A stretch of 64,000 nucleotides of DNA from Nitriliruptorales bacterium (GCA_024644015.1 JAHELV010000002.1:57799-121798); one strand, 5' to 3'; positions 3,437 to 46,842 are shown, numbered from the stretch's first letter. Notes: a model not told the origin generated them from the sequence alone. Program-made: numbers and translations.

Positions 3437-3497
3437 ATATCGGTTGAAGCGATGAATGCTCTTGAAAGATATGTTTTAGCAGATATGATTTGGACGG
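3437..3497. promoter_or_regulatory. AT-rich divergent promoter/operator island between the ArsR-type regulator and the flavoprotein-merB genes
   Basis: This is the only strongly AT-rich stretch in this part of the window. It contains AGATATG twice in direct repeat (3467-3473 and 3481-3487, 14-bp period) and an ATATC...GATAT inverted arrangement. It sits between two divergent start codons (3395 and 3620). Confidence 0.4.
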
Positions 3498-5012: not shown

Positions 5013-5666
5013 ATGACCGCCACCGCACCGACCTACGACGAGATCGTCGCCCGGCTGTCCGACGCCAGCGTCGCGCTCGACCCCGACGACCAGCGCCTCG
5101 CGCTCACGCTGCTGCGCACCCTCGCCGACGGCGACCCGGTGTCGGCTGCGGCGCTGGCCGGGCGCACAGGCCAGAGCCCGCGGCAGGCCGCGGCGTTCAT
5201 CGACCGCCTGCCCGGCATCTACAGCAATGACGACGGCGACGTCGTCGGGATGTGGGGGCTGGCCGCCACCCACTTCCCGCCCCACGCCTACCGCGTCGGC
5301 GACACGGACCTGTTCACGTGGTGCGCGTGGGATCCGTTCATCCTGACCGACTGGCTCGGCGGCACCGCCGAGGTGACGTCGGTCGATGCGCACACAACGC
5401 AACCGGTCAGCTTTCGAATCGACCACGGACGCGCCGTCGACCTGTCCCATCCCGGGCTGGTGCTGTCGTTCAAGCTCGTCGATGAATGGGACGCCGACGT
5501 GATCGCCAGCTTCTGCCACTTCGTGCACTACTTCACCGACGAGCAGTCCGCACGCGCCTGGACCGCCGAGCACCCCGACACGTTCGTGCTGTCACTGGAC
5601 GACGCGATCCGGCTCGGGCAGGTCTGGGGCCGGCTGGTGTTCCCCGACCTCGACCCGCACGACTGA
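5013..5666 (+). CDS. merB: Organomercurial lyase MerB
   Basis: GGAGG RBS at 5001-5005, ATG at 5013. Clear colinear similarity to R831b MerB as recalled from memory: LFTWCAWDPFILTDWLGGTAEVTS (Cys96/Asp99 equivalents) and VIASFCHFVHYFTD (Cys159 equivalent). Confidence 0.85.
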   Translation: MTATAPTYDEIVARLSDASVALDPDDQRLALTLLRTLADGDPVSAAALAGRTGQSPRQAAAFIDRLPGIYSNDDGDVVGMWGLAATHFPPHAYRVGDTDLFTWCAWDPFILTDWLGGTAEVTSVDAHTTQPVSFRIDHGRAVDLSHPGLVLSFKLVDEWDADVIASFCHFVHYFTDEQSARAWTAEHPDTFVLSLDDAIRLGQVWGRLVFPDLDPHD

Positions 5667-5754: not shown

Positions 5755-7017
5755 ATGAGCGCTGGCGTTCGTCGTGTGATTCGGACCTACCTGACGCTGA
5801 CGTTGCTCTCGACGCTGGCCGCGTCGTTCATCTGGGGGATCAACACGCTGTTCCTGCTGGACGCCGGGTTGAGCAACACCGGTGCGTTCACGGCCAACGC
5901 GTTCTTCACCGCGGGGCAGGTCGGATTCGAGATCCCGACCGGTGTTGTGGCGGACACACGCGGCAGACGGACGTCCTACCTGCTGGGCGCGGCCACGCTC
6001 TTCGCATCGACCCTGCTGTACGTGTGGATGTGGCAGGCCCAGGCGGCGCTGTGGGGCTGGGCGCTCGCGTCGATCCTCATCGGGCTGGGGTTCACGTTCT
6101 TCTCGGGCGCGGTCGAGGCGTGGCTGGTCGACGCGCTCGGCGCGAACGGCTACGACGGGGACCTCGAGTCCGTGTTCGCCAGGGGACAGGTCGTCGCGGG
6201 CGTGGCGATGCTCACAGGGTCGGTGACGGGCGGAGCAGTCGCGCAGGTCACGAACCTCGGCGTGCCGTACGTCATGCGCGCCGTGCTGCTCGCCGCGGTG
6301 TTCGCCGTCGCGTACATTGCGATGCGCGACGAGGGGTTCACGCCGCACCGCGGCAGCGGTCCCATCGACGAGATCCGGTCGGTTGTCAGTGCCTCACTCG
6401 ACCACGGGTGGCGCAACCCGCCGGTGCGGTGGGTCATGCTGGCTGCGCCCTTCACGATGGGTGCCGGCATCTTCGCGTTCTACGCCATGCAGCCGTATCT
6501 GCTGGAGCTGTACGGAGACCAGTCGGCCTTCGGCATCGCGGGGCTGGCGGCGGCCATCGTCGCCGGCGCCCAGGTCGTCGGTGGCATCCTCGTCCCGCGG
6601 ATCCGCAGGATCTTCGCGCGCAGGACCGACGCGCTGATCGCTGCCGCCGCAGTCAGCGTAGTGGTGCTTGCGGGTCTCGGGCTGACGTCGAGCTTCTGGG
6701 TCGCGTTGACGCTGATCTCGGTGTGGGCGCTGACCTTCGCCGCCAGCAGCCCGCTCCGGCAGGCGTTCATCAACGGGGTGATCCCATCGGAGCAACGCGC
6801 GACGGTGCTGTCGTTCGACGCACTCATGGGTTCAGCGGGAGGAGTCGTCGCCCAGCCGGCGTTGGGACGCGCCGCGGACGTCTGGAGCTTCTCGGTCGCG
6901 TACGGCATCACTGCGATCGTCACGGCTGTCGCCGTTCCGTTCTATGCTCTCGCCCGCCGGGAGCGTGCGGTCTCCGACCCGATCGAACAGTATCGCCCGA
7001 TCGCCGCCGCACCGTAG
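5755..7017 (+). CDS. MFS transporter (12-TM type)
   Basis: Hydrophobic multi-span sequence with the MFS loop 2-3 motif GVVADTRGRRTSYLLG. 420 aa. Confidence 0.85.
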   Translation: MSAGVRRVIRTYLTLTLLSTLAASFIWGINTLFLLDAGLSNTGAFTANAFFTAGQVGFEIPTGVVADTRGRRTSYLLGAATLFASTLLYVWMWQAQAALWGWALASILIGLGFTFFSGAVEAWLVDALGANGYDGDLESVFARGQVVAGVAMLTGSVTGGAVAQVTNLGVPYVMRAVLLAAVFAVAYIAMRDEGFTPHRGSGPIDEIRSVVSASLDHGWRNPPVRWVMLAAPFTMGAGIFAFYAMQPYLLELYGDQSAFGIAGLAAAIVAGAQVVGGILVPRIRRIFARRTDALIAAAAVSVVVLAGLGLTSSFWVALTLISVWALTFAASSPLRQAFINGVIPSEQRATVLSFDALMGSAGGVVAQPALGRAADVWSFSVAYGITAIVTAVAVPFYALARRERAVSDPIEQYRPIAAAP

Positions 7018-35183: not shown

Positions 35184-36014
35184 GTGAGCGGAAGCGTCAG
35201 CGTGGTGGTTGCCCGGCGCGTGCGGGACGGCGCGGAGGGCGCATTCGTCCAGTGGGCGACGCGCATCATCGCGGAGGCGGCGCGTGCTCCGGGGTTCCTC
35301 GGCGCCGAGCTGCAAAGACCCGACCAGGCGCATCCGGACGCGTGGGTCACCGTGTACCGCTTCGCGACCGCCGAGGAGTTGGCCGCGTGGCGCTCGTCTG
35401 AGCGGCGGGCCGCTCTGATCGACGAGATCGCTCCTTCATTGCAGGGGACGGTCAAGGAGCAGTTGGTCGCCGAGCCGGCGCGCTCCGACACACCGGTGAC
35501 CGTTGTGATGTCCCAACAGATCCGTCGTGGGCGCGCGCGGGACTTCGAGGCGGCTCACGACGGTGTGGTCACGAAGCTGTCGGCGTTCCCCGGGTTTCTG
35601 CGGTCCGAGCTCATCCCGCCGGTCGACGGCGTCTCCGGCGACCACGTCATCGTCTTCGCGTTCGACGCTCGCGCCAACCTGGATCGCTGGCTCGAATCCG
35701 ACGAACGTCGATCGTGGCTGGAACAGGTCACCCCACTGATCGAGGGGGACCGCAAGATGAACGTCGTCGGCGGTTTCGCAGGCTGGTTCCGAGCGACCGA
35801 CGATGCACACACGCCGAAATGGAAGCAGGCGACGGCGGTCCTGCTGGCGTTGTTCCCGACGGCCCTCACCCTGAGCCTTCTTCGCCAGGCGCTCCTGCCC
35901 GACCTGGCGCTGGTCCCGAGCGTGTTTCTGTCCAACGTGCTGGGCGTCGCAGTGTTGACGTGGCTGCTCATGCCGTGGGTCACCCGCGCGCTCGGACCGT
36001 GGCTCAAGCACTGA
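35184..36014 (+). CDS. Tandem ABM (antibiotic-biosynthesis-monooxygenase-like) domains with a C-terminal two-span membrane anchor
   Basis: Two repeats of the ferredoxin-like barrel (VSVVVARRVRDGAEGAFVQWATRI...VTVYRFATAEELAAWRSSERR and VTVVMSQQIRRGRARDFEAAHDGV...VIVFAFDARANLDRWLESDER). These are followed by hydrophobic KQATAVLLALFPTALTLSLL...VLGVAVLTWLLMPWV. GTG 35184 with AAGGGAG upstream is preferred over the TTG at 35145. Confidence 0.65.
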   Translation: MSGSVSVVVARRVRDGAEGAFVQWATRIIAEAARAPGFLGAELQRPDQAHPDAWVTVYRFATAEELAAWRSSERRAALIDEIAPSLQGTVKEQLVAEPARSDTPVTVVMSQQIRRGRARDFEAAHDGVVTKLSAFPGFLRSELIPPVDGVSGDHVIVFAFDARANLDRWLESDERRSWLEQVTPLIEGDRKMNVVGGFAGWFRATDDAHTPKWKQATAVLLALFPTALTLSLLRQALLPDLALVPSVFLSNVLGVAVLTWLLMPWVTRALGPWLKH

Positions 36015-36023
36015 GGTCAACAG

Positions 36024-37028
36024 TCAGGTCAGCGCCCGGCGACACGCGCGGAAGAACTCGATCACCGTCCGGCGCTGATCGTCGGCCTGCACGACCTCCG
36101 ACAACGCCAACTCGGCGCCGACGAACGCATCGGCGTTCCACAGCGTGGACTCAGGGACCGTTTCGGGGCGCCAAGGCGTCACGTAGGCGTACGGCTGCGG
36201 GTGGGCGGCATCGCCGGGCGACATGCCGAAGCCGGCGCGCCGATCACCGGCGAGGCACTCGAACGCCGCGTCGAAGTGCTCCGGCCACAGCTGCACCCTG
36301 CTCGCCTCCACGCTCTCGGCGTCGGCACGCACCTCCTCGAGCACCGACCAGGCGAAGCCGAACCAGTCGCCGAGGAACGCCGCCGCACCGGGTTCGACGT
36401 CGAGGTGAGCATCCATGTCGCCGGCCGGTGGTACGTCGAGGCCCGCCGCCCAGTCCACGGCCGGAGCTCCGTCCAGAGCGAACGCCGCTGCCTCGGTGAG
36501 CGTCGAGATGGGCAACGCCCACGCATTCGGGCCCCGTTGACGGATCACGTTCGTGCCGTCGACGCGAACCTGCTCGTCGGCTCCGAAGAACGGGGTGCCA
36601 AAGCCGCCCCGTGTGTAGCGCAGTGCCATCTTGCCCTCGCTGGCGCGCTGCCTGGCGGGCGACAGGACATACACCGCCAGGCGGTGCAGCGCGTTGCGTG
36701 TACGCGCGTAGCCGTCGGGTGGCCGCGACAGCCGCCGGTGCCGCCCGAGCCAGCGGTCGCGCAGCCATCCCGCCGGCAGGTCGATCGCGTCCGAGGAGGC
36801 CAACCTCGACCAGGTGAGATCGCCGCGTCCCCGGACCGGCGAGATGACCTGTGTGTCCGGATCGGACGAGGTCGCGTCGACAGGGTCGTCGGCCCACCAC
36901 GGCGAAGCGGTGATCGCGGGCGGCGACGGCTCGAGGACGCGGGGGTCGTAGTGCGCCCCGGCGACGGCACGCGCTTCGGCGCGTGGGTCGCGGGCGGCGA
37001 TGGCGGTGACGGGAAGTGAGGTGACCAT
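36024..37028 (-). CDS. Hypothetical protein (334 aa), last gene of the Rieske-TPP operon
   Basis: This is the 3' part of the chimeric 979-aa track ORF. ATG 37028 overlaps the stop of the upstream gene (ATGA). GC3 is high and the amino-acid composition is not Arg/Pro-biased. I recognise no motif. Confidence 0.6.
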   Translation of the reverse strand: MVTSLPVTAIAARDPRAEARAVAGAHYDPRVLEPSPPAITASPWWADDPVDATSSDPDTQVISPVRGRGDLTWSRLASSDAIDLPAGWLRDRWLGRHRRLSRPPDGYARTRNALHRLAVYVLSPARQRASEGKMALRYTRGGFGTPFFGADEQVRVDGTNVIRQRGPNAWALPISTLTEAAAFALDGAPAVDWAAGLDVPPAGDMDAHLDVEPGAAAFLGDWFGFAWSVLEEVRADAESVEASRVQLWPEHFDAAFECLAGDRRAGFGMSPGDAAHPQPYAYVTPWRPETVPESTLWNADAFVGAELALSEVVQADDQRRTVIEFFRACRRALT

Positions 37029-37030
37029 GA

Positions 37031-39037
37031 TCACACCAACTGCGGGTCGTTGACGATGTGGACCAGTGACGGGCCGGGGTGGGCCAGGGCCGCGCGCAGC
37101 GCCGGTTCGAGCTCGTCGAGCGTGCCGGCGCGCAGGCCCCGGACGCCGCACAACTCCGCGAACGCCGCGAAGTCGGGGTTGCGCAGCGACGTCTGCCACA
37201 CGTCCCACTCGCCCGCGCGCTGCTCCTTGGAGATCTTGCCCAGCTCGCCGTTGTCGAGCAGCACGTGGGTGATCGGCATGTCGTACTTGGCGAGCGTCGT
37301 CAGCTCCATGGCGTACTGCCCGAACCCGCCGTCGCCGCTGATCCCGATGACCTTGCGGCTGTCGCCGACCGCCGCCCATGCGCCCATCGCCGCCGGGAGA
37401 CCGAACCCGATGGAGCCGAGGTAGCCCGACATCAGCACGTCCTGCGCGCCCGACGACTCGAAGTAGCGCCCGAACGAGTACGCGTTGTTGCCGACGTCCA
37501 CGCACAGCACCGCATCGTGGGGCACGGTCCGGGTCAGCGCGTCGAAGATGGCCGCCGAGCCGACCCCGTGGCCGCGGTCGTCGCCTCGTCGCCGCTCCTT
37601 CTCGCGCTGCCACAGCGCCCGGCGCTCTGCCACCTCGCCGCGCAGGTCGACGCCGCCGGACGTGTCGGGCAGGCCGTCGATCAGCGCACGTGCGGTCACG
37701 CCAACGTCGCCGAGCACGGGCACGGTGACCGCGTGGAATCGCCCGAGCGCCATCGGGTCGCGATCGACCTGGACGATCGGCTTGTAGTCCGCGACTCCGG
37801 TGTGGTTGGAGAACGACGCGCCGAAGGCGATGACGAGGTCGCTTTCGTTCATGAACCACGACGCCACCGGTGTGCCGCTGCGGCCGAGCACGCCGCACCC
37901 GAGGGGATGCCGATCCGACATCATGCCCTTGGCCTTGAAGGTCGTCATCACGGGAGCGCCGAGTCGCTCGGCCACCGCGAGCACGTCGCGGATGCCGTCG
38001 CGCGCTCCGGCACCGACGATGATCAGCGGTCTGCGCGCCGCTGCGATCGCCGACCGCGCGGCCGCGAGCGCGTCGGCCGGAGGTGCGACGCGCAGGTCGC
38101 CGATGCGGCCGTCGGGCGGCTTCGCTGCCTGGTCGTCGCCGGCCGGCAGGTTCTGGACCTCGTCCGGGAACACCAGGTGGGCGACGTCGCGCTCGACGAT
38201 CGCCGTCTTGCATGCCAGCGCAACCAACTCGGCGTGGTCGCTGTCGGCCTGCACCGTCTTCGTGTAGCGGGCGACATCGGCGAACGCTCCGTTCAGGTCG
38301 ACATCCTGGAAGGCGCCACGGCCGAGCACCTTCGACGGCACCTGGCCCGACAGCGCCAGGACGGGCGCGCGGTCCGCCTTCGCGTCGTACAGCCCGGTCA
38401 GCAGGTTGGTCGACCCGGGCCCGGCGATGCCGAAACACGCCGCGGGGCGTCCAGTCAGCTTTCCGTACGCACCGGCGGCGAACGCGGCGGCACCCTCGTG
38501 ACGGATGCCGATGAAGCGCAGCTCGCCTTTGGCCTCGGCCGAGCGGAACGCGTCGGCGAGGCCGAGGTTGGAGTGGCCGACCATGCCGAACACATGGTCG
38601 ATGCCCCACGCCACCATGGTCTCGACCGCCACGTCGGCGATGGTGCGGGCGCGCGGTCGCTCGTCGGGAAGGGCGACCCAGACACCGTCGGACCGTACCT
38701 CGGTGCGGTAGCTGGCGGGTTTGTCGGAGAATGGTGGCGGCGGGGCACCGTTGCATGGCGAGTAGTCGTAGCCGTGCCAGGGGCAGCGCAGCCAGCCCTT
38801 CTCGATGGAACCCTCGCCCAGCGGGCCGCCCTGGTGCGGACAGCGGTTGTCGAGCGCGCCGTAACGACCGTTGAAGCGGGTCATCGCGAGCGTGCGGTGC
38901 CCGAGCGTCACTGTTGTGACGCGGCCGTCGGCCAGGTCGTCGGGGCCCAGCGCCCGCCACCACGTGTAGGCGCCGTCCGGGTGTTGCGGTGGGTCCAGCG
39001 AGGGGTCTGGCTTGACGGGTGCGGCGACGTCGGTCAT
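37031..39037 (-). CDS. Rieske [2Fe-2S] domain fused to a thiamine-pyrophosphate enzyme (pyruvate-oxidase / acetolactate-synthase superfamily)
   Basis: N-terminus: CPHQGGPLGEGSIEKGWLRCPWHG (C-x-H...C-x-x-H Rieske ligands). Then TPP_enzyme_N: GIDHVFGMVGHSNLGLADAF...IRHEGAAAFAAGAYGKLTGRPAACFGIAGPGSTNLLTGLYDA. Central domain: PLIIVGAGAR. TPP-binding: GISGDGGFGQYAMELTTLAKYDMPITHVLLDNGELG. I trimmed the start to ATG 39037 (MTDVAAPV). Confidence 0.85.
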   Translation of the reverse strand: MTDVAAPVKPDPSLDPPQHPDGAYTWWRALGPDDLADGRVTTVTLGHRTLAMTRFNGRYGALDNRCPHQGGPLGEGSIEKGWLRCPWHGYDYSPCNGAPPPPFSDKPASYRTEVRSDGVWVALPDERPRARTIADVAVETMVAWGIDHVFGMVGHSNLGLADAFRSAEAKGELRFIGIRHEGAAAFAAGAYGKLTGRPAACFGIAGPGSTNLLTGLYDAKADRAPVLALSGQVPSKVLGRGAFQDVDLNGAFADVARYTKTVQADSDHAELVALACKTAIVERDVAHLVFPDEVQNLPAGDDQAAKPPDGRIGDLRVAPPADALAAARSAIAAARRPLIIVGAGARDGIRDVLAVAERLGAPVMTTFKAKGMMSDRHPLGCGVLGRSGTPVASWFMNESDLVIAFGASFSNHTGVADYKPIVQVDRDPMALGRFHAVTVPVLGDVGVTARALIDGLPDTSGGVDLRGEVAERRALWQREKERRRGDDRGHGVGSAAIFDALTRTVPHDAVLCVDVGNNAYSFGRYFESSGAQDVLMSGYLGSIGFGLPAAMGAWAAVGDSRKVIGISGDGGFGQYAMELTTLAKYDMPITHVLLDNGELGKISKEQRAGEWDVWQTSLRNPDFAAFAELCGVRGLRAGTLDELEPALRAALAHPGPSLVHIVNDPQLV

Positions 39038-39068
39038 CAGCGTGCCTCCGGTGAGGTGTGTCCGCTGC

Positions 39069-39806
39069 TCAGCGGTGCTCGGGGTTGGGGTAGTCGAAAC
39101 GGCAGCCGGCGTCCCACTCGGAGCGCTGGTTGCCGTGCGCGGGGATCCCACCGGCGTCCTTGAGCATCCGCGCCATGTGCAGCAGGTTCCACGTCATGAA
39201 CGTCGTGTTGCGGTTCGTGAAGTCGTTCTCGGGTCCGCCGGAACCCGGGTCGGCGTACGACGGGCCGGGACCCGCCTCGCCGATCCAGCCCGCGTCTGCC
39301 TGCGGCGGGATCGTGTAGCCCAGGTGCTGCAGCGAGTACAGGATGTTCATGGCGCAGTGCTTGACGCCGTCCTCGTTGCCGGTGACCAGGCAGCCGGCGA
39401 CCCGCCCGTAGTAGGCGTACTGGCCGGCGTCGTTGAGTAGATGGCTGTTGCCGTACAGCCGCTCGATGACCTGGGTGCACACCGACGACTTCTCGCCCAG
39501 CCAGATCGGCGTGATGAGCACCAGGATGTCGGCGGCCATCACCTTCTCGAAGACGGCGGGCCAGTCGTCGCGCTCCCAGCCGTGTTCGGTCATGTCGGGC
39601 CACACGCCGGTGGCGATCGCTTGATCAACCGCACGCACCGACTCGACCTCCACGCCCTGCTTCTGCAGCAGCGAGATCGACCGGTCCGCGAGGACCTGCG
39701 TGTGTGACTGCTCCGGTGACCGTTTCAGCGTGCAGTTGATGAAGATCGCCCGCAGGTCGCTGTAGTCCTGCGCGCCGTTGCCGCTGGCCATGTCGGTGGT
39801 GCTCAT
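39069..39806 (-). CDS. NAD(P)H-dependent FMN reductase / flavodoxin-like fold protein
   Basis: LRAIFINCTLKRSPEQSHTQVLADRSISLLQKQGVEVESVRAV...ADILVLITPIWLGEKSS is the FMN_red/flavodoxin_2 pattern. It lies 31 nt upstream of the Rieske-TPP gene on the same strand. Confidence 0.8.
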   Translation of the reverse strand: MSTTDMASGNGAQDYSDLRAIFINCTLKRSPEQSHTQVLADRSISLLQKQGVEVESVRAVDQAIATGVWPDMTEHGWERDDWPAVFEKVMAADILVLITPIWLGEKSSVCTQVIERLYGNSHLLNDAGQYAYYGRVAGCLVTGNEDGVKHCAMNILYSLQHLGYTIPPQADAGWIGEAGPGPSYADPGSGGPENDFTNRNTTFMTWNLLHMARMLKDAGGIPAHGNQRSEWDAGCRFDYPNPEHR

Positions 39807-39912
39807 CAGGTGCTCCCTGTTCGCTGCGCTCCGCGCGTCGTCGGCCGAGGCGTGTCGTCCACTGCTGTCTCGGCGGCGCCCGACGCGTTACATCCGCGCC
39901 GCGGGATCCGCG

Positions 39913-39944
39913 GGTGGCCGACCCCGGGTTCGGAGCCGGCCACC
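39913..39944 (-). terminator. Hairpin downstream of the lactonase-like gene (possible intrinsic terminator without a T-tract)
   Basis: GGTGGCCG (39913-39920) and CGGCCACC (39937-39944) form an 8-bp GC stem with a 16-nt loop. It starts 17 nt past the stop codon at 39962-39964 on the minus strand. Confidence 0.3.
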
Positions 39945-39961
39945 TGACGCCCACGGCGCTG

Positions 39962-41296
39962 CTACAGCGCGGCGATTCCCGCCGGGCTGCCCAGGGGGCT
40001 GAAGTCGATCGGCGCCTGATCGCCGTCGATTGTCTTCGGTAGGCCCGGGAACTCGCCGAGCTTGGTGAGGCTGCCGTCGCTGCCGATCTGCCAGGCGCCG
40101 ACCTTGCCCGCGCCGGGCAGGACCACGTACAGGAACCGCCCGTTGCCACTGACGGCCATGTCGAGCGGCGTGGTGCCCTGCAGGTTGCCGGGATCATCGG
40201 TCGTGCCGGCGACCTGCTCGAGCAATGTCAGCTGCCCGTCGCTGCCGACGCGGAAGCTGGACACCGTGCCCGAGGTGTAGTTCGCGCCGAAGGCGTACCT
40301 GCCGTTGTTGACGACCCAGCACGTGTCGAACTGGTGGTCGAACTCGCCGTCGGTGATGGCTGTCAGCGTCCCGTCGTCGTTGATCCGGTACGAGCCGGCG
40401 GCGCCGGTCGGGATCGGCGTGCCGCCGAGGTCCTCGGGCGTGCCGCCGACGAAGAGCGCGACGAGCATGTTGCCGTGACGGTCGAACGAAAACCCGAACG
40501 GCCCGCGGAAGCCGAAGTCGGTTCGCGTGTAGTCGGCCGACGGCCGGCCGTCCCGCACCGACCAGACCAGCACGCGGCCCGGGCCGGTCGGCTCGACGCC
40601 GTCCACGAGGTCGGGCGACGGACCATCCTTGATCGTCACGACCAGCTGCCGGCCGTCGGGCGTGAACGACACCTGCGTCGGGTTGTACAGCGCGTCCGGC
40701 GCGAAGCGCTGCTGGTTGGCGTCGAGCGTCCGGCGTGAGCCCGCGATCGGCGTGAGCTTGCCGTCGTTCGACAGTCGGAAGCCGGTGATCGACCCCTCGT
40801 CGGCGGAGTTGAGGACGTACACCAGCTTGCCGTGCTGCGTGACGCTGTTGGGGAACCGCTGACCGGGCGAGCCGTCACCAGTGACCACGATGTCGGTGCG
40901 CTCCAAGCGGTCGCGGTGCACCCGGAAGACCGTCACGTCGTTGCTGCCCGCGTTCGTGACGAACAGGAACCGACGGTCGTGGCTGAGGGTCACCGAGCCA
41001 CCGGAGCCCAGCCCGTCGCCGGCGAAGCGCTGACCGGGACCCGACCCCTGGCCGCCGGTGTCGAAGTAGCCGCGCAGTTGCAGGCGACCGTCGGGCCCGC
41101 GGGTGTACATGGCCACCTGGTTCGCCGGCTCGGCCGGGTCAGTGGCGTTCGTGTTGTTGTGGTTCGTGCCTACGAAGACCGCGCCGGCGGGTGGTGTCTT
41201 CTCGGCGGCGAAGGCGGATGGGACGAGCATGCCGATCAGGAGCATGGAGGCCGTCACCCTGGCGATGACGCGCCGAAGCGTCGGGGTCATGGGCAT
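39962..41296 (-). CDS. Secreted lactonase-type 7-bladed beta-propeller protein
   Basis: I trimmed the track ORF to ATG 41296 (AAGGAA RBS). The signal peptide MPMTPTLRRVIARVTASMLLIGMLVPSAFAAE is followed by repeated propeller-blade patterns (RFLFVTNAGSNDVTVFRV; KLVYVLNSADEGSITGFRL; RQLVVT; RYAFGANYTSGTVSSFRV; RFLYVVLPGAGKVGAWQI). Confidence 0.75.
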   Translation of the reverse strand: MPMTPTLRRVIARVTASMLLIGMLVPSAFAAEKTPPAGAVFVGTNHNNTNATDPAEPANQVAMYTRGPDGRLQLRGYFDTGGQGSGPGQRFAGDGLGSGGSVTLSHDRRFLFVTNAGSNDVTVFRVHRDRLERTDIVVTGDGSPGQRFPNSVTQHGKLVYVLNSADEGSITGFRLSNDGKLTPIAGSRRTLDANQQRFAPDALYNPTQVSFTPDGRQLVVTIKDGPSPDLVDGVEPTGPGRVLVWSVRDGRPSADYTRTDFGFRGPFGFSFDRHGNMLVALFVGGTPEDLGGTPIPTGAAGSYRINDDGTLTAITDGEFDHQFDTCWVVNNGRYAFGANYTSGTVSSFRVGSDGQLTLLEQVAGTTDDPGNLQGTTPLDMAVSGNGRFLYVVLPGAGKVGAWQIGSDGSLTKLGEFPGLPKTIDGDQAPIDFSPLGSPAGIAAL

Positions 41297-41349
41297 TCCT
41301 TTCTCGTGGCGGGCCGACGTCGACCCACGCGGACGGGGGTGGCCCGCGA

Positions 41350-42543
41350 TCAGAAGTGGGCGATCAGCGGGCAGTTGGAGATCAGGCCGCTGGGCCCGAC
41401 GTCGCCGCCTTCGAGCGCGGTCAGCGACCCGGCGCGGGCGAGGCGGACGACCTCCAGCTCGCTGCCGATCCGGGACCGATACCCGTTGGCGATCGCGTCG
41501 TCGGTCCAGACGGCCACGTACAGGTCCCACATGGGGCTGTATGCGGCGCCGTTCAGCACGCCCGGCGCGCCGTCGAAGATGTCGAGCACCTGCGCGCCCG
41601 CGTCGCCGAGCGCGCTGTTGAGCCCCTGTCGCTGCGGGTTGTCGGCACCGGTGGGCCCGTTGACGATGATGTAGTTGGCCGACACCGCCGAGTCGCTCGC
41701 GTCGTTGCGGCCGACGGGCAGGCTCTTCTTGAGCCGCGGCACGAACGTCGTCGCCTCGAGCGCCGAGACGAGCTCGCTGTTCGAGTCGAGGCTGATGAAC
41801 AGGATCGGCCGGTCCGAGGACGTGCCGACGTTCATGGTCAGCGTGATCGTCTTGTTGGCCGGTGAGATCGCCACCGCCCGGTCGATGACCAGCGAGTAGT
41901 CGATGCCGCCGTCGGGGAACTCGATCTGCGCAGCCGACACGTCGAAGGCCACGATCGTGGCGTTGAGCACGACGTCGTGCTGGTTGCCCACCCGTACCAG
42001 CGGCGAGTAGGCCGCGTCGCCCTCCGACCCCGGTTGCGCCTGCGCCGGCGGGAAGAAGTCAGGCGCCGCACCGGCGGTGACGACCCGCTCAGGTGAGAAG
42101 TCGACCGTGCCCGCGTCGAAGACCAGCGTGCCGTGATGTCCACGCCGGGCGCTGCGGACCGCGGCGTCAGGCGCGTTGGCCAGTTTGGGCGACCAGTTGA
42201 CGCCCAGCCTGCGCGCGGTCGCACGGTCGGAGGCGTCGGTCACCACATACCACACGCTGCGGCCATCGCGCATCGCTCCTCGTCGCAACGGCAGCGTCAC
42301 GGTGCCCTGGTCGGCGTTGATCCGCCCCGAGGGCAGGATCGGCTCCAGGTCGTACCCGACGGGGAAGTAGTCGGCGACGACGGGTGGGGTCTCGACGAAC
42401 AGCGCGTCCGGGTCGCCGCCAGCTTGTTGATCGACGGGCGTCACCGCGGCGCTGCCGAGCAGCAGCACGACGGCGGGAGCGGCGATCAGCGAGCGCCAGC
42501 GGCCGGAGACAAGTGGCCGCCCGGGTATGCGGAACCTGTGCAT
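41350..42543 (-). CDS. Secreted hypothetical protein (~397 aa)
   Basis: I trimmed the track ORF to the internal ATG (MHRFRIPGRPLVSGRWRSLIAAPAVVLLLGSAAV looks like a signal peptide or anchor). GC3 is high and the composition is balanced. I recognise no catalytic motif. Confidence 0.6.
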   Translation of the reverse strand: MHRFRIPGRPLVSGRWRSLIAAPAVVLLLGSAAVTPVDQQAGGDPDALFVETPPVVADYFPVGYDLEPILPSGRINADQGTVTLPLRRGAMRDGRSVWYVVTDASDRATARRLGVNWSPKLANAPDAAVRSARRGHHGTLVFDAGTVDFSPERVVTAGAAPDFFPPAQAQPGSEGDAAYSPLVRVGNQHDVVLNATIVAFDVSAAQIEFPDGGIDYSLVIDRAVAISPANKTITLTMNVGTSSDRPILFISLDSNSELVSALEATTFVPRLKKSLPVGRNDASDSAVSANYIIVNGPTGADNPQRQGLNSALGDAGAQVLDIFDGAPGVLNGAAYSPMWDLYVAVWTDDAIANGYRSRIGSELEVVRLARAGSLTALEGGDVGPSGLISNCPLIAHF

Positions 42544-42613
42544 GGCATCGTCCTGACTGTTGAGTTCGCACGTTGCGTGCGGCAACAGTCACGACGCGTG
42601 GACGACCGTTACA

Positions 42614-43294
42614 TCAGACGACGCCAACGTTCGTGCGCAGGATGTGTTCGTGGAACCATGAGGCCTGCAGTGCGCGCTCCAGCGCGGCGGCGTCGGCGGT
42701 GCGTTGAGCGACGTGGGCGGCCGTGAACGCGACGAGGTTCGCCCGTCCGGCCGCACCGAACATGATCGCGTCGGCGAGATAGCCGACGACGTCCGCGGCA
42801 TCCGTGACGCCGGTCTGGTCCGGAGTTGTCGCCGCGGCCCGCTTGGTGCCGCTCGGCGCTGTCAACGTCGCGCTCGTCACGCCGTGCAGCTCGTCGATGC
42901 GTGAACAGGCCCCGAGCTGCGCCGCGCGCGCCACATCGCCGACGCCCGTCAAGGCGACGACGGCGTGGTCACGGATCCGCCAGATGCACGCGTGCGCGAA
43001 CGCCACGGCGGCGTTGGCGTCCCAGGCCGCGATCCGTTCGACCAGGCGGCCGGACGGTGCGACGACGTGGTACGGCTCGTCGACGTGCGCTCCGCCGAGC
43101 TCGAGCGCCCACAGCTCGTCGCAGATCCAGTACGGCAGGTCGGCGGGTTGGCACGCGTGGATCCCGTTGCGGCACGGCGACGGCGCGCCGCCGGCGTGCA
43201 CCCACGGGCCCGGTGTCGGACCCGTCGGGCGCGGCCACGCGAACCCGGTGAACGGACCGACCGCACCTGTGCGCAGGAACTTGTACGCCAACAC
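42614..43294 (-). CDS. Hypothetical cytoplasmic protein (~226 aa) immediately downstream of the anti-sigma gene
   Basis: GTG 43294 lies 16 nt after the anti-sigma stop. The N-terminal block is VLAYKFLRTGAVGPFTGFAWP...PCRNGIHACQPADLPYWICDELWALEL (spaced Cys/His). The C-terminal half is helical and Ala-rich. I cannot name a family. Confidence 0.55.
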   Translation of the reverse strand: MLAYKFLRTGAVGPFTGFAWPRPTGPTPGPWVHAGGAPSPCRNGIHACQPADLPYWICDELWALELGGAHVDEPYHVVAPSGRLVERIAAWDANAAVAFAHACIWRIRDHAVVALTGVGDVARAAQLGACSRIDELHGVTSATLTAPSGTKRAAATTPDQTGVTDAADVVGYLADAIMFGAAGRANLVAFTAAHVAQRTADAAALERALQASWFHEHILRTNVGVV

Positions 43295-43310
43295 GAGCGG
43301 ACTCCGACCG

Positions 43311-43556
43311 TCAGTGTTCGTGCCAGTCGCGGAAGGCACGCAGCAGCTCGTCCCGCGACGTGGGCGGGATGGACTCGGCGGGAAGCCTGCCAACGGCGGC
43401 GATGGTGGCTCGCATCTGGTCCAGGTACGTGGTGCAGTCCTCGCAGATGCTGATGTGCAGCTCGAACCGCACGCGCTCCGACGGTGGCAGGTCGCCTTCG
43501 AGGTAGTCAGTGACCAGCTCCACGAGCTCCTTGCAGGTCACGCCGCGGTCGATCAT
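43311..43556 (-). CDS. Soluble zinc-binding anti-sigma factor (ZAS, RsrA-like, 81 aa)
   Basis: These are the last 81 codons of the 354-aa track ORF. MIDRGVTCKELVELVTDYLEGDL...FELHISICEDCTTYLDQM carries C-x26-H-x3-C-x2-C, the spacing of the RsrA zinc/redox ligands. There is no TM segment. The ATG overlaps the sigma stop (ATGA). Confidence 0.8.
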   Translation of the reverse strand: MIDRGVTCKELVELVTDYLEGDLPPSERVRFELHISICEDCTTYLDQMRATIAAVGRLPAESIPPTSRDELLRAFRDWHEH

Positions 43557-44230
43557 CGCGTCACCAACCGTCGGTCCATGTACTCCTCGAGCCGCGCGCG
43601 GACCGCCGCACGCGCGCGGTGCAGCAGCACCCGCTGGTTCGCCTCGGACAGTCCCAACGTCGCACACACTTCCTTTGAGGTGAAGCCCTGCTCGTCGCGC
43701 AGCGTGATCACCGCTCGCTGTCGCGGCCCGAGCTCGTCGATCGCCCGTCGGATGACGTCGCCCGTCTCCTTCGACAGCAGGCTGTCCTCGGGCGCCCACT
43801 CGCGTGGGGGTCTGGCCCAGTCGTGGCCCCAGCGGTGTGAGGCGTCGAGGAACCGGTCCGCGTCGACGGTCGCGGCGTGGTCGCGTTCGTCGTGCACCGC
43901 CGACAGCGGGATGCTGCGTGCTTCCCGCACTCCTCGGGTCTTGCTGAGGTTGGTGACGATGCGAAAGACCCATGTCCGCAGGGACGACCGGCCCTCGAAA
44001 CGCGAGATGCCCCGCACCACCCCCATCCAGGCATCCTGCACGACCTCCTCGGCCACGGCGCGGCTGGAGACGTGGAGCAGGGCGACACGCAACATCGCGG
44101 AGGACCATCGGTCGATGAGCGCGGCGAAGGTCGGCTCGTGCCCGGCCCGCAGCGCCGCGATGACGGCGGCGTCGTCGGACAGGTCCACAGGGACGGCGGT
44201 CGACGCCGAACGTTCGACCGGCACGGCCAT
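43553..44230 (-). CDS. ECF (group 4) RNA polymerase sigma factor
   Basis: Sigma-2: AEEVVQDAWMGVVRGISRFEGRSSLRTWVFRIVTNLSKTR. Sigma-4: LGPRQRAVITLRDEQGFTSKEVCATLGLSEANQRVLLHRARAAVR. The two regions are joined by a long linker. I trimmed the start to ATG 44230 (MAVPVER). Confidence 0.85.
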   Translation of the reverse strand: MAVPVERSASTAVPVDLSDDAAVIAALRAGHEPTFAALIDRWSSAMLRVALLHVSSRAVAEEVVQDAWMGVVRGISRFEGRSSLRTWVFRIVTNLSKTRGVREARSIPLSAVHDERDHAATVDADRFLDASHRWGHDWARPPREWAPEDSLLSKETGDVIRRAIDELGPRQRAVITLRDEQGFTSKEVCATLGLSEANQRVLLHRARAAVRARLEEYMDRRLVTR

Positions 44231-44459
44231 GGGCGCCCCCTGTTCGATCTCGGCGCAGCGTACTCGACCCGCGCTGCGGGTGGGTAGGTCGATGCGCGAG
44301 ATCACGTGGATACCGTCTCGCGACGGCGGTGAGCGTTACACAGCAATTCGCCTTCGGCCGCGACAGCGGTGGCATGTCGACGCCGGCGGGTCATGCGTAA
44401 CGAACCGAGCACGCGCGAGACAGCACGCTCACCACACTCCCACGCGCTGTGAGGACGTC

Positions 44460-45683
44460 ATGCCCGAGGTATCGCTCAGCGGCTTCGCGATCGTGACGGC
44501 GGTCGCGTTCGCCGTCCCGTTGATTGCGGGGCTGTTCCCACGTGTCCGCCTTCCCGGTGCGGTACTCGAGATCGTCGCGGGCATCGTGATCGGCCCGTCC
44601 GTTCTCGGTTGGGTCCAGATCGACGAACCGTTGCAGGTGCTGGGGCTCATCGGGTTGGCGTTCCTGTTGTTCCTGGCGGGCCTCGAGATCGACTTCGTCC
44701 ACCTGCGCGGCACGCTCCTGCGCGCCGCCGTCCTCGGATTCGCGCTGTCGTTCGCGATCGCGCTGCTGATCGGCGGGGGCCTGGCCGCGTTCGGGGTGGT
44801 GCAGTCCGCGTTGCTGGTGGCGATCATCCTCACGTCGACGTCGCTGGGCGTCATCGTGCCGCTGCTCAAGGACGCCGGACAGGCGGGAGCGCGGTTCGGT
44901 CAGCTCGTGATCGCCGCGGCGTCCATCGCGGACTTCGGCGCGGTGATCCTGCTGTCGCTGTTCTTCTCCCGCGAGGCCACGGGCATCGGCGCCCAGTTGC
45001 TCCTGCTCGGCGGCCTGGCCGTCCTGGCCCTCGTGCTCGGGTTCGGCGTCGCCGAGGCGTCGCGTTCCGCACGCCTGTCCGCGGAGCTCATCGCGCTGCA
45101 GGACAGCAGCGCCCAGATTCGCGTCCGCGGTGCGGTCGTATTGCTCGCCGTGTTCATCTGGTTCGCGCAGCTCGTCGGACTCGAGGTGATCCTGGGCGCC
45201 TTCATCGCCGGCGCGGTGCTGCGTCTGGTCGACCGGTCGACCATGACCCATCCGACGTTCCGCACGAAGCTCGACGCGCTCGGCTACGGCATGTTCATCC
45301 CGATCTTCTTCGTCACCAGCGGGGTGCGCTTCGACGTCGCGGCGCTGACCGCAGACCGCTCTGCGCTGGCAACGATCCCGCTGTTCGTCGTCGCGCTTCT
45401 GGCCGTGCGCGGACTGCCGGCACTGCTGTACACCCGCCAGATCGGTGCGCGACTGACCGGCGTTGCGGCGCTGTTGCAGGCGACGTCGCTGCCGTTCATC
45501 GTCGCCGCCGCCCAGATCGGCATGGAACTGGGTGTCCTGAGCACCGCGGTCGGTGCGGCGCTCGTCGCGGCCGGGCTGGTGTCGGTCCTGGTGTTCCCGC
45601 TGGCGGCGCTTTCGCTGCTGCGCCCGATGCCGACGCCCATGGTCGCCGGCGTCGACACGGCGGCGCCGTCAACGACCAGTTGA
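44460..45683 (+). CDS. Cation:proton antiporter (CPA2/Kef-type Na+/H+ exchanger family)
   Basis: Only the 3' 407 codons of the 959-aa track ORF look real. MPEVSLSGFAIVTAVAFAVPLIAGLF...LEIVAGIVIGPSVLGW...LLFLAGLEIDF is the classic Na_H_Exchanger N-terminal pattern. Confidence 0.85.
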   Translation: MPEVSLSGFAIVTAVAFAVPLIAGLFPRVRLPGAVLEIVAGIVIGPSVLGWVQIDEPLQVLGLIGLAFLLFLAGLEIDFVHLRGTLLRAAVLGFALSFAIALLIGGGLAAFGVVQSALLVAIILTSTSLGVIVPLLKDAGQAGARFGQLVIAAASIADFGAVILLSLFFSREATGIGAQLLLLGGLAVLALVLGFGVAEASRSARLSAELIALQDSSAQIRVRGAVVLLAVFIWFAQLVGLEVILGAFIAGAVLRLVDRSTMTHPTFRTKLDALGYGMFIPIFFVTSGVRFDVAALTADRSALATIPLFVVALLAVRGLPALLYTRQIGARLTGVAALLQATSLPFIVAAAQIGMELGVLSTAVGAALVAAGLVSVLVFPLAALSLLRPMPTPMVAGVDTAAPSTTS

Positions 45684-45972
45684 GGTTCGCATCGAGGCCG
45701 ATCTCGGGCTGGGCAGGGCCACCATCGGCCCCTGGAACGGATCCTGCGCCCCCGCCCACCGGTTCCCCAACCTCCTGGCGGTCGCCGGGCAGTCCACCGG
45801 TGGCGATCCGACGAGCAGTTCGCGCTGCTCATCGATCTGTTCGTCGACGGCCTCGCAACGAGAGGGCGTGAGCAGTCGAAGCGATCCTGTCGCGGCCGCG
45901 CTACCGCACGCCGGGCGGCCGCCGAAGTCGGCGGTAGGGTGCGACCTGGACCGGTCCCCGTGGAGGCACCCC

Positions 45973-46842
45973 ATGAGCCAGCTCAGCGAGCCGCTGCCGT
46001 CGTTCCTTGCCGAACCATCGAGGATTGGTGAGGAGATCAGCGTCACGGGCAAGTGGGTCCCGGCGAAACCGGGCGGGCGGTTCCGGAAGTCAGCGTCCTC
46101 ACAGGAGATGCTCCGGGAGTGGGAGGACATCCATGCGGCTGCCAGGGCCGATGCGGGCGTCCTGTCGACCGAGATCAACCATGCGGTCGGTGAGGACGCC
46201 GTGCTCGTCCATCACGTCTTCGCCGACCCCCACGCGTTGATCGAGTACTTCTCCACGACCGCCACCCAGCACATGGGCCCGCTCCTGACCGTTGCCACAC
46301 CCCAGCTGCACCTGGCCCGCGGCGTCAGCGTTCCTGCTGCTGCACGAAACGCGCTGCTGGCCAAGCAGGTGCCCGCGGTGTTCGGAGAGCTGCTGTTCGG
46401 CTACGTCCGGGATGACTACCGGCGCCCCGATCCGACGACCGCCATCCAGGTCACCGCGAAGTGGACGTGCAAGGACGGCGCGGCCAGCCACCTCGACGAG
46501 CTGACGCACTGGTGGCAGCGAGTGGGGACCGACGCGCATTCGATGGAACAGGGCCTCCTGCGATTCGAGGCCTACCAAGCTGTGGGCGAGGACGCCCTGA
46601 TCATCCACGAGACCTTCGCCAGCAGCGACGAGCTGAAGTTCCACCTGTCCAAGGGCACCGCGGAGAAGTACAAGAAAGACATCGACCAGGTCGCCGTGCC
46701 GGAGGCCTACTTCTTCCGCGGACCCGTGTCCTGGACCATCCGGACCTACTCCAGGTTCATGCACCTGCCGGCGACCTACTCCAGCCGTGGCAGCCACTTC
46801 ACCCAGCCCGGGGGCACCATGAGCGAGGGCACCACAGCCTGA
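45973..46842 (+). CDS. Hypothetical protein, probably a tandem ABM-like (dimeric alpha-beta barrel) fold
   Basis: I trimmed the track ORF to ATG 45973 (GGAGG 7 nt upstream). There are two repeats of the pattern ...GEDAVLVHHVFADPHALIEYF... and ...GEDALIIHETFASSDELKFHL.... GC3 is high. Confidence 0.55.
   Translation: MSQLSEPLPSFLAEPSRIGEEISVTGKWVPAKPGGRFRKSASSQEMLREWEDIHAAARADAGVLSTEINHAVGEDAVLVHHVFADPHALIEYFSTTATQHMGPLLTVATPQLHLARGVSVPAAARNALLAKQVPAVFGELLFGYVRDDYRRPDPTTAIQVTAKWTCKDGAASHLDELTHWWQRVGTDAHSMEQGLLRFEAYQAVGEDALIIHETFASSDELKFHLSKGTAEKYKKDIDQVAVPEAYFFRGPVSWTIRTYSRFMHLPATYSSRGSHFTQPGGTMSEGTTA

Follow-up and report, generated by a model that had tools for sequence, protein, structure and literature searches.

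A probable three-component ECF sigma factor switch with a predicted local regulon in a Nitriliruptorales bacterium

Soluble zinc-binding anti-sigma (ZAS) factors that partner sigma factors of the extracytoplasmic function (ECF) type are generally presumed to sense redox changes themselves, after the model of RsrA, and most of them are without the RsrA determinants. In the Bacillus subtilis SigM-YhdL-YhdK system the inhibitor is split over two polypeptides co-encoded downstream of the sigma gene. The closest functional analogue of the system described here is RpoE-ChrR of Rhodobacter sphaeroides (ECF11), whose soluble class I anti-sigma domain has its zinc site in an HxxxCxxC motif and depends for the response on a second domain in the cytoplasm. 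In class I anti-sigma domains whose zinc motif does no sensing, it is usually an added domain that detects the stimulus (PMC7406223), and RsrA owes its redox sensitivity to E39, E40, L45 and E46, on either side of the C41/C44 pair (Jung et al., PMC3177212). Here we examine a 64,000-nucleotide stretch of Nitriliruptorales DNA (GCA_024644015.1, JAHELV010000002.1:57799-121798; hereafter the window, with positions counted from its first letter) in which an ECF sigma gene and a ZAS gene are followed by the gene for a 226-residue cytoplasmic protein, P3. We rate this system as a pairing of an ECF sigma factor with a class I anti-sigma factor in which the cytoplasmic partner domain is detached and forms a conserved third component, and we think it reasonably probable that the locus is a three-component cytoplasmic ECF switch together with its local regulon of four adjacent units.

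The anti-sigma factor and its partner P3

The window derives from a metagenome-assembled genome recovered from a sediment metagenome (4.0 Mb in 161 contigs; window G+C content 70%). The original prediction had described five co-directional genes on its minus strand, namely an ECF sigma factor, an RsrA-like soluble anti-sigma factor and three cargo proteins (P3, P4 and P5). All five open reading frames (ORFs) are present at the coordinates first read, and their tight spacing was upheld by inspection of the junctions: the sigma stop and the ZAS start form an ATGA overlap, the gap between the ZAS gene and P3 is 16 nt, with a GGAG ribosome-binding site ahead of the P3 start (GTG 43294), and gaps of 70 nt and 53 nt separate P3 from P4 and P4 from P5, respectively. 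The sigma factor (43553..44305, minus strand, counted from a probable start considered below) scores 46.7 bits against PF04542 (Sigma70_r2), 51.4 bits against PF08281 (Sigma70_r4_2) and 85.1 bits against the ECF superfamily model TIGR02937 (cutoff 42.9), and the 81-residue protein (43311..43556, minus strand) scores 45.7 bits against zf-HC2 over residues 8-41 (cutoff 22.2). Together with the ATGA overlap, these scores confirm the pairing of an ECF sigma factor with a soluble ZAS anti-sigma factor. The sigma factor reached no NCBIfam equivalog at or above cutoff and is assigned to no numbered ECF group by these models.

With its N-terminal anti-sigma domain carrying HxxxCxxC and its gene adjoining that of the sigma factor, the 81-residue protein is of the class I (ZAS) type, and it is predicted to bind zinc and to inhibit the sigma factor. 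Its ligands C8, H34, C38 and C41 are spaced C8-x25-H34-x3-C38-x2-C41; the first interval had been miscounted as x26, and the identity originally claimed with the spacing of RsrA (C11/H37/C41/C44) holds. The broader description of the protein as RsrA-like does not. Against the RsrA/RshA equivalog TIGR03988 it scores 27.6 bits, below the cutoff of 62.5; it reads H34-I-S-I-C38-E-D-C41-T-T, so that S, I, T and T replace all four of the RsrA redox determinants E39, E40, L45 and E46; and the predicted promoters described below are not of the SigR/SigH type. The same determinants are absent from all P3-linked ZAS proteins extracted, most of which share, in varied form, the subfamily signature TCxELVELVTDYLEG...HxxxCxxC...LLxAFRxW. 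Judged by its sequence, this ZAS protein is not an RsrA orthologue, and its likeness to RsrA ends at the ligand spacing.

P3 (42614..43294, minus strand) belongs to a large family that is tied to ZAS proteins. A word-indexed search returned only 15 relatives, and an exhaustive profile search returned 2601 clusters at 50% identity (E<=1e-3), 450 of them with E<=1e-30. A ZAS (zf-HC2) gene adjoins the P3 homologue at each of the 22 other loci examined, with a sigma gene there too in most. These loci include L002 and L004 (Paraconexibacteraceae), L003 (Gaiellaceae), L005 (Anaeromyxobacteraceae), L018, L020-L030 and the P0007 and P0009 contigs, and they span the three families named and several further families within the phylum of the window; the contigs of L023 and L024 stop immediately upstream of the ZAS-P3 pair. 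In L020 and L028 the P3 and ZAS genes converge, which implies that the ZAS-P3 association outlasts rearrangement. P3 also stays with ZAS at loci where P4 and P5 are absent. A reverse test, in which a 64%-identical sigma factor was picked regardless of P3, gave the same picture, as a ZAS gene and a DUF7666-like gene directly followed the sigma gene at both of the places read.

The two proteins also occur as natural fusions. Seven family members of 285-314 residues carry a ZAS region at their N-terminus; the zf-HC2 cutoff is passed by five of the seven, P0166 included, and the N-terminally shortened P0193 gives no match. Such fusion proteins are the classic form of evidence that two proteins work together physically, and they suggest as much for ZAS and P3. 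Five of the seven fusions are without anti-sigma helix IV, the helix that normally binds sigma-2. The two fusions whose gene context was read, P0248 and P0236 (L031:1260-4888 and L033:1377-4858), overlap by 4 nt the ends of STAND-like regulators of 875-914 residues, which have an N-terminal AAA_16/AAA_22 domain and a C-terminal Sigma70_r4_2 domain, no sigma-2 domain and, in one case, a possible sub-threshold TPR; the absence of helix IV from five fusions fits a sigma-4-only partner of this kind. Taken together, neighbourhoods and fusions make it most likely that P3 is a conserved third part of the switch, and its earlier assignment as cargo is not sustained. A literature search found no paper on DUF7666 and none on the sigma/ZAS/P3 triad. 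Two ZAS-P3 pairs were seen at one locus in L003 (773-1539 and 2322-3103, one of them inverted) and on the P0009 contig, where one pair lies ahead of a sigma gene, a ZAS gene and a 224-residue gene; these doubled pairs suggest duplication and possible cross-talk.

The AlphaFold2 model of P3 (predicted local distance difference test score, pLDDT, 90.6; predicted template modelling score, pTM, 0.87) consists of a beta domain (residues 1-87), a helical bundle (residues 93-219) and a disordered loop. A Foldseek search of the PDB gave no fold match for the model (best E 0.55). Against BFVD the N-terminal domain alone matched DUF7666 proteins from phages and giant viruses, aligned over 93-99 residues (root-mean-square deviation 2.6-2.9, probability 1.00, E ~1e-3), so the P3 model shares the fold of the ~95-residue DUF7666 beta domain. 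Against the DUF7666 sequence profile (PF24703) P3 scores 14.3 bits, below the cutoff of 27, and its relatives reach up to 24.4 bits or have weak precomputed hits. Across 162 family members K5, W20, W56, L61 and L84 are invariant, and E206, R207 and Q210 are 96-99% conserved. H46 (96%), C48 (91%), C103 (89%) and C41 (73%) are also widely kept, the full C-H-C-C combination being found in 98 of the 162 members, and we read these four residues as a candidate metal or thiol site.

A shared promoter motif and the genes behind it

Four sites of the form YGTAACG-N16/17-GAC(G/T/A)G lie between the genes of this locus, and we infer that they are promoters read by the sigma factor. A predicted autoregulatory promoter, TGTAACG-N16-GACGGT (44312..44339, minus strand), would serve sigma, ZAS and P3; an internal one, TGTAACG-N16-GACTGT (42585..42612, minus strand), placed directly after the P3 stop, would serve P4 and P5; a third, TGTAACG-N16-GACAGC (39864..39891, minus strand), in the gap between P5 and a flavin mononucleotide (FMN) reductase gene, would serve that gene and the two that follow it; and a divergent one, CGTAACG-N16-GACAGC (44397..44424, plus strand), would serve an antiporter gene. 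The stretch 44231-44459, in which the original prediction had suggested a search for an ECF-type promoter, holds two of these predicted sites, one on each strand. The pattern GTAACG-N16/17-GAC[GTA]G has eight matches in the 4.0-Mb genome, four of them in this 4.6-kb stretch, where all are intergenic and correctly oriented. A looser pattern fixed before inspection, GTAACG-N16/17-GAC, has 17 matches in the genome and the same four in the locus, where ~0.02 would be expected by chance; the genome has 330 copies of the hexamer GTAACG, and the four that fall in the locus each belong to one of the four sites. The sole other exact GTAACG-N17-GACGGT site of this genome lies outside the window, at C133:32123-32151 (minus strand), with no obvious gene within 200 nt downstream in a crude ORF check.

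The position of the first promoter bears on the start of the sigma gene. A GTG codon at 44305 lies 7 nt past the -10 element, and an in-frame GTG lies 6-8 nt past the -10 element in four of the five loci compared, which suggests a leaderless sigma transcript and a 250-residue sigma factor. The sigma factor is thus probably translated leaderless from GTG 44305 rather than from ATG 44230; the gene had been placed at 43553-44230, and its ECF identity stands while its start probably moves upstream. A related sequence, TGTAACG-N16-GAGAC, occurs inside the 3' part of other sigma coding sequences (L067:6533-6559, L068:1300-1326, L021:4168-4194 and L023:8-34), where it spans the codons for C-N-x-L-x-L-S-E-T-N-Q. 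The window's own sigma gene is without it, and it could be either an internal ZAS-P3 promoter or a by-product of the protein motif.

The motif stands ahead of the sigma gene in the window and in L018, L002, L003, L004 and L026, six lineages in all, and is found clustered near the triad in G315, G108, G148, L067, L021 and L023. L018 keeps both the P4 site (5265-5292) and the antiporter site (3465-3492). In L002 an orthologue of the enzyme that joins Rieske and thiamine pyrophosphate (TPP) domains in the window (Rieske::TPP) begins with a leaderless ATG behind the exact motif, and L004 has a near-exact motif there; ahead of the divergent homologue (43-44% identity) of the gene at 36024, L002 and L004 both have the exact motif with a leaderless ATG. 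In other genomes the motif precedes further genes. It stands at the sigma gene and at EgtB in G315 (TIGR03440, 379.8 bits, cutoff 360), ahead of an antiporter and of a class I flavoprotein disulfide reductase that resembles MerA/Lpd/RclA and stays below the equivalog cutoffs in G108, ahead of the same type of reductase in G148, and ahead of an antiporter in L023; in L067, L068 and L021 a disulfide reductase gene with the motif is divergent from the sigma gene. Directly beside the triad, L023:2069-4912 and L067:7580-10064 contain a GCS2 gene of the glutamate-cysteine ligase family, the gene for a metal-binding HMA protein and another sigma/ZAS pair, which is RsrA-like, so that two predicted thiol-stress sigma systems stand side by side. 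EgtB, the disulfide reductases and GCS2 elsewhere, with the FMN reductase and the Rieske::TPP enzyme here, point to a regulon that would serve as a thiol, oxidant or electrophile stress response. Of the redox or electrophile trigger first proposed, the thiol theme thus fits the predicted targets in other lineages, and RsrA-type sensing by ZAS alone was not borne out.

In the window the predicted regulon is larger than the operon first drawn. The five members of that operon are real, its extent was set too small, and the stretch 36024-39806 and the divergent antiporter gene (44460-45683) belong to the predicted unit as well. A promoter of their own for the cargo genes had been counted as a point against co-expression with the sigma factor; P4 and P5 do have a predicted one, and because it carries the same ECF-type motif it argues for co-regulation, not against it. 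The expectation that neighbouring genes provide the output of the sigma factor likewise appears to hold, given the shared motif ahead of four adjacent units. Consensus scans of 35800-46000 gave no sigma-70-type promoter and no minus-strand terminator, a result that is uninformative at 70% G+C.

P4 (41350..42543, minus strand) is a predicted secreted protein of 397 residues. It had been described as having no recognisable motif, and it carries the uncharacterised Pfam family DUF7482 (PF24298, 43.8 bits, cutoff 27.5), as do homologues; these number more than 745, cyanobacterial ones included. Its AlphaFold2 model (pLDDT 87.3, with low confidence for residues 1-41) has no fold match in the PDB by Foldseek (best E 0.86), and no literature on DUF7482 was found. 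P5 (39962..41296, minus strand; 444 residues) is predicted to be secreted as well, both signal peptides having been judged by eye, and its recognition as a lactonase-type seven-bladed beta-propeller is supported by PF10282 (63 bits, cutoff 21.7); its scores against the 6-phosphogluconolactonase equivalogs are 41.6 (cutoff 500) and 34.9 (cutoff 370), and P5 is assigned to the fold family and not to an enzyme activity. The propeller is paired with DUF7482 in L018, L019 and L020 and adjoins the triad in L029. The pair stands near the triad in four arrangements (window and L018; L020; L005; L029) and is found in L019 with no sigma gene nearby; it is a cassette of its own.

The third unit comprises an NADPH-dependent FMN reductase/flavodoxin-fold protein (39069..39806, minus strand; PF03358, 45.2 bits), a Rieske [2Fe-2S]::TPP (pyruvate-oxidase-like) fusion enzyme recognised by Pfam (37031..39037, minus strand) and an uncharacterised protein (36024..37028, minus strand). 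For the Rieske::TPP gene, the upstream start chosen by the ORF finder, GTG 39151, would run 83 nt into the FMN-reductase gene, and ATG 39037, which has a GGAGG site 8 nt upstream and lies 31 nt from the FMN-reductase stop, is the probable start instead; the third gene begins at ATG 37028, 2 nt after the Rieske::TPP stop. As read from the sequence, the gene junctions fit three tandem units. The fourth unit, on the plus strand, is a cation/proton antiporter of the Na_H_Exchanger family (44460..45683) that shares 84% identity with an L018 gene carrying the annotation PF00999, and an antiporter gene is also found beside the triad in L003, L023, L025, L029 and L064.

The four same-genus genomes retain only the FMN-reductase gene of this region. 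In one of them, at L015 (G003:C77, ~6097-6956), the slot beside the conserved FMN-reductase gene is taken by a different ECF sigma gene (44% identity) and a ZAS-like gene (49% identity), a convergent pair on the opposite strand, with P3, P4 and P5 absent. The region is a variable regulatory hotspot.

A proposed mechanism and its alternatives

The switch that we propose would work as follows. The soluble 81-residue ZAS protein would hold the sigma factor, and P3 would act with ZAS as its detached C-terminal partner or sensor domain. Since ZAS is without the residues that confer redox sensitivity on RsrA, perception of the stimulus may reside in P3, possibly through the Cys/His cluster C41, H46, C48 and C103. 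The freed sigma factor would then start transcription at the YGTAACG-N16/17-GAC(G/T/A)G promoters ahead of four neighbouring units, comprising sigma, ZAS and P3 themselves (autoregulation, probably on a leaderless transcript), the secreted DUF7482 protein with the lactonase-type propeller, the FMN reductase with the Rieske::TPP oxidase and the 36024 gene, and the divergent cation/proton antiporter.

Several observations weigh against this proposal. The degenerate -10 element GAC[GTA]G was picked after the sites had been seen, although the version with GAC set a priori still places four of its 17 matches in the locus. No motif with two or fewer mismatches was found upstream of P4 in L005, L019 or L020; the GTG codons near the L018 sigma promoter are not in frame, which means that a leaderless start is not common to all loci; and C41 is missing from 27% of P3 family members. 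The P3 family was not found in 60 relatives, the four other genomes of the window's genus among them, and its absence from those four marks the module as accessory. The sequencing runs with the locus are DNA metagenomes only, with no RNA run found, and these promoters might in principle be read by another sigma factor with a GTAACG-type -35 element (SigD-like or ECF16-like).

A bolder version of the proposal, to which we give distinctly less than even weight, is that P3 is a widespread and undescribed cytoplasmic input domain (~2600 clusters, with a Cys3His-type site) and a true thiol, metal or electrophile sensor that plugs into a sigma-4-binding ZAS. If this were so, separate P3 would control a large actinobacterial ECF subfamily, and fused P3, without the sigma-2-binding helix, would control giant STAND (AAA_16-TPR) regulators with a sigma-4 DNA-binding domain alone.

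The alternative that fares best, unlikely as we hold it to be, makes P3 an anti-anti-sigma factor whose signal-triggered binding to ZAS strips ZAS off the sigma factor in a partner switch. The adjacency and fusion data fit any direct ZAS-P3 interaction, and partner-switching ECF systems are established in EcfG/NepR/PhyR (PMC7826278). An antagonist permanently fused to its own target is, however, less parsimonious, and P3 has no sigma-mimic or receiver domain. The five fusions without helix IV of the anti-sigma domain, and the pairing of P0248 and P0236 with sigma-4-only regulators, look instead like an integral inhibitor module.

We regard as improbable the two-component SigR/RsrA-like switch of the original prediction, in which ZAS alone senses oxidation and P3, P4 and P5 are all cargo. 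The identical Cys/His spacing, the collinear and closely spaced five genes and the predicted co-transcription of P3 with the regulators would all be explained by it. The sub-cutoff TIGR03988 score and the absence of all four redox determinants tell against ZAS as the sensor, and the persistence of P3 with ZAS where P4 and P5 are absent, the second-copy ZAS-P3 pairs (L003 and the P0009 contig) and the ZAS-P3 fusions tell against P3 as cargo.

Slightly less probable still is an accessory role for P3 as a zinc or thiol chaperone, a ZAS-repair enzyme or an unrelated DUF7666 protein kept nearby by operon drift. Conserved Cys and His residues would suit such a role, and the DUF7666 fold is also found in phage and giant-virus proteins unrelated to sigma factors, but drift would not yield ZAS adjacency at every locus examined, in distant families and three gene orders, together with fusions. 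A last reading, which seems very improbable, takes the GTAACG...GAC sites for chance matches, operators of another regulator or SigD-like or ECF16-like promoters instead of promoters of the present sigma factor: promoters of Corynebacterium glutamicum SigD have GTAAC(A/G) at -35 and GAT at -10 (PMC6338062), those of ECF16 read (T/C)GTAAC-N17-CGAA (PMC8315932) and the -10 element differs among the four window sites, but six lineages have the motif ahead of this sigma gene, it follows the triad into further genomes, and half of the eight genome-wide matches fall within one 4.6-kb locus.

Comparison with known systems

For one large ZAS subfamily, the locus offers a candidate answer to how the signal is perceived, namely by a dedicated partner protein, joined to ZAS in one chain in some cases. 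It would also provide a first functional context for the DUF7666-like, DUF7482 and Rieske::TPP fusion families, linking them, in uncultured Actinomycetota of soil and sediment, to genes for ergothioneine and for disulfide reductases, and the sharply defined motif and compact predicted regulon make reporter assays straightforward.

Among described systems, the SigM inhibitor resembles the present one in being divided between polypeptides; YhdL and YhdK are membrane proteins that sense the envelope, and they are unrelated to ZAS and P3 in sequence and fold. The SigD and ECF16 systems, which use membrane anti-sigma factors (RsdA; NrsF/AbcS), are alike in the GTAAC(G) -35 element. SigD-RsdA of C. 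glutamicum and Mycobacterium tuberculosis and SigF/BcrS of ECF16 have no ZAS and no P3, however. The likeness is one of promoter sequence, the geometry being GTAAC-N17/18-GA(C/T) for SigD (PMC6338062), whose C. glutamicum targets include an lpd-type flavoprotein gene, and (T/C)GTAAC-N17-CGAA for ECF16 (PMC8315932).

SigR-RsrA of Streptomyces coelicolor and SigH-RshA (ECF12) share with this locus the small soluble ZAS, an actinobacterial host, the C-x25-H-x3-C-x2-C spacing and predicted targets of a thiol or redox kind. The present pair is not orthologous to them; E39, E40, L45 and E46 are absent, a third gene is obligate and the predicted promoter is GTAACG-N16-GACGG rather than of the SigR/SigH type; pairs of the true RsrA type coexist beside the triad in L023 and L067.

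The nearest parallel is with RpoE-ChrR, as the ZAS-P3 fusions follow the same two-domain logic of an anti-sigma domain joined to a second cytoplasmic domain. The resemblance does not extend to sequence or promoter, the ZAS protein scoring 17.6 bits against the ChrR model TIGR02451 (cutoff 124.5) and the motif differing from TGATCC...CGTA. In place of the cupin of ChrR, the partner here is a DUF7666-like beta domain with a helical bundle, and it is mostly, as in this genome, a separate polypeptide.

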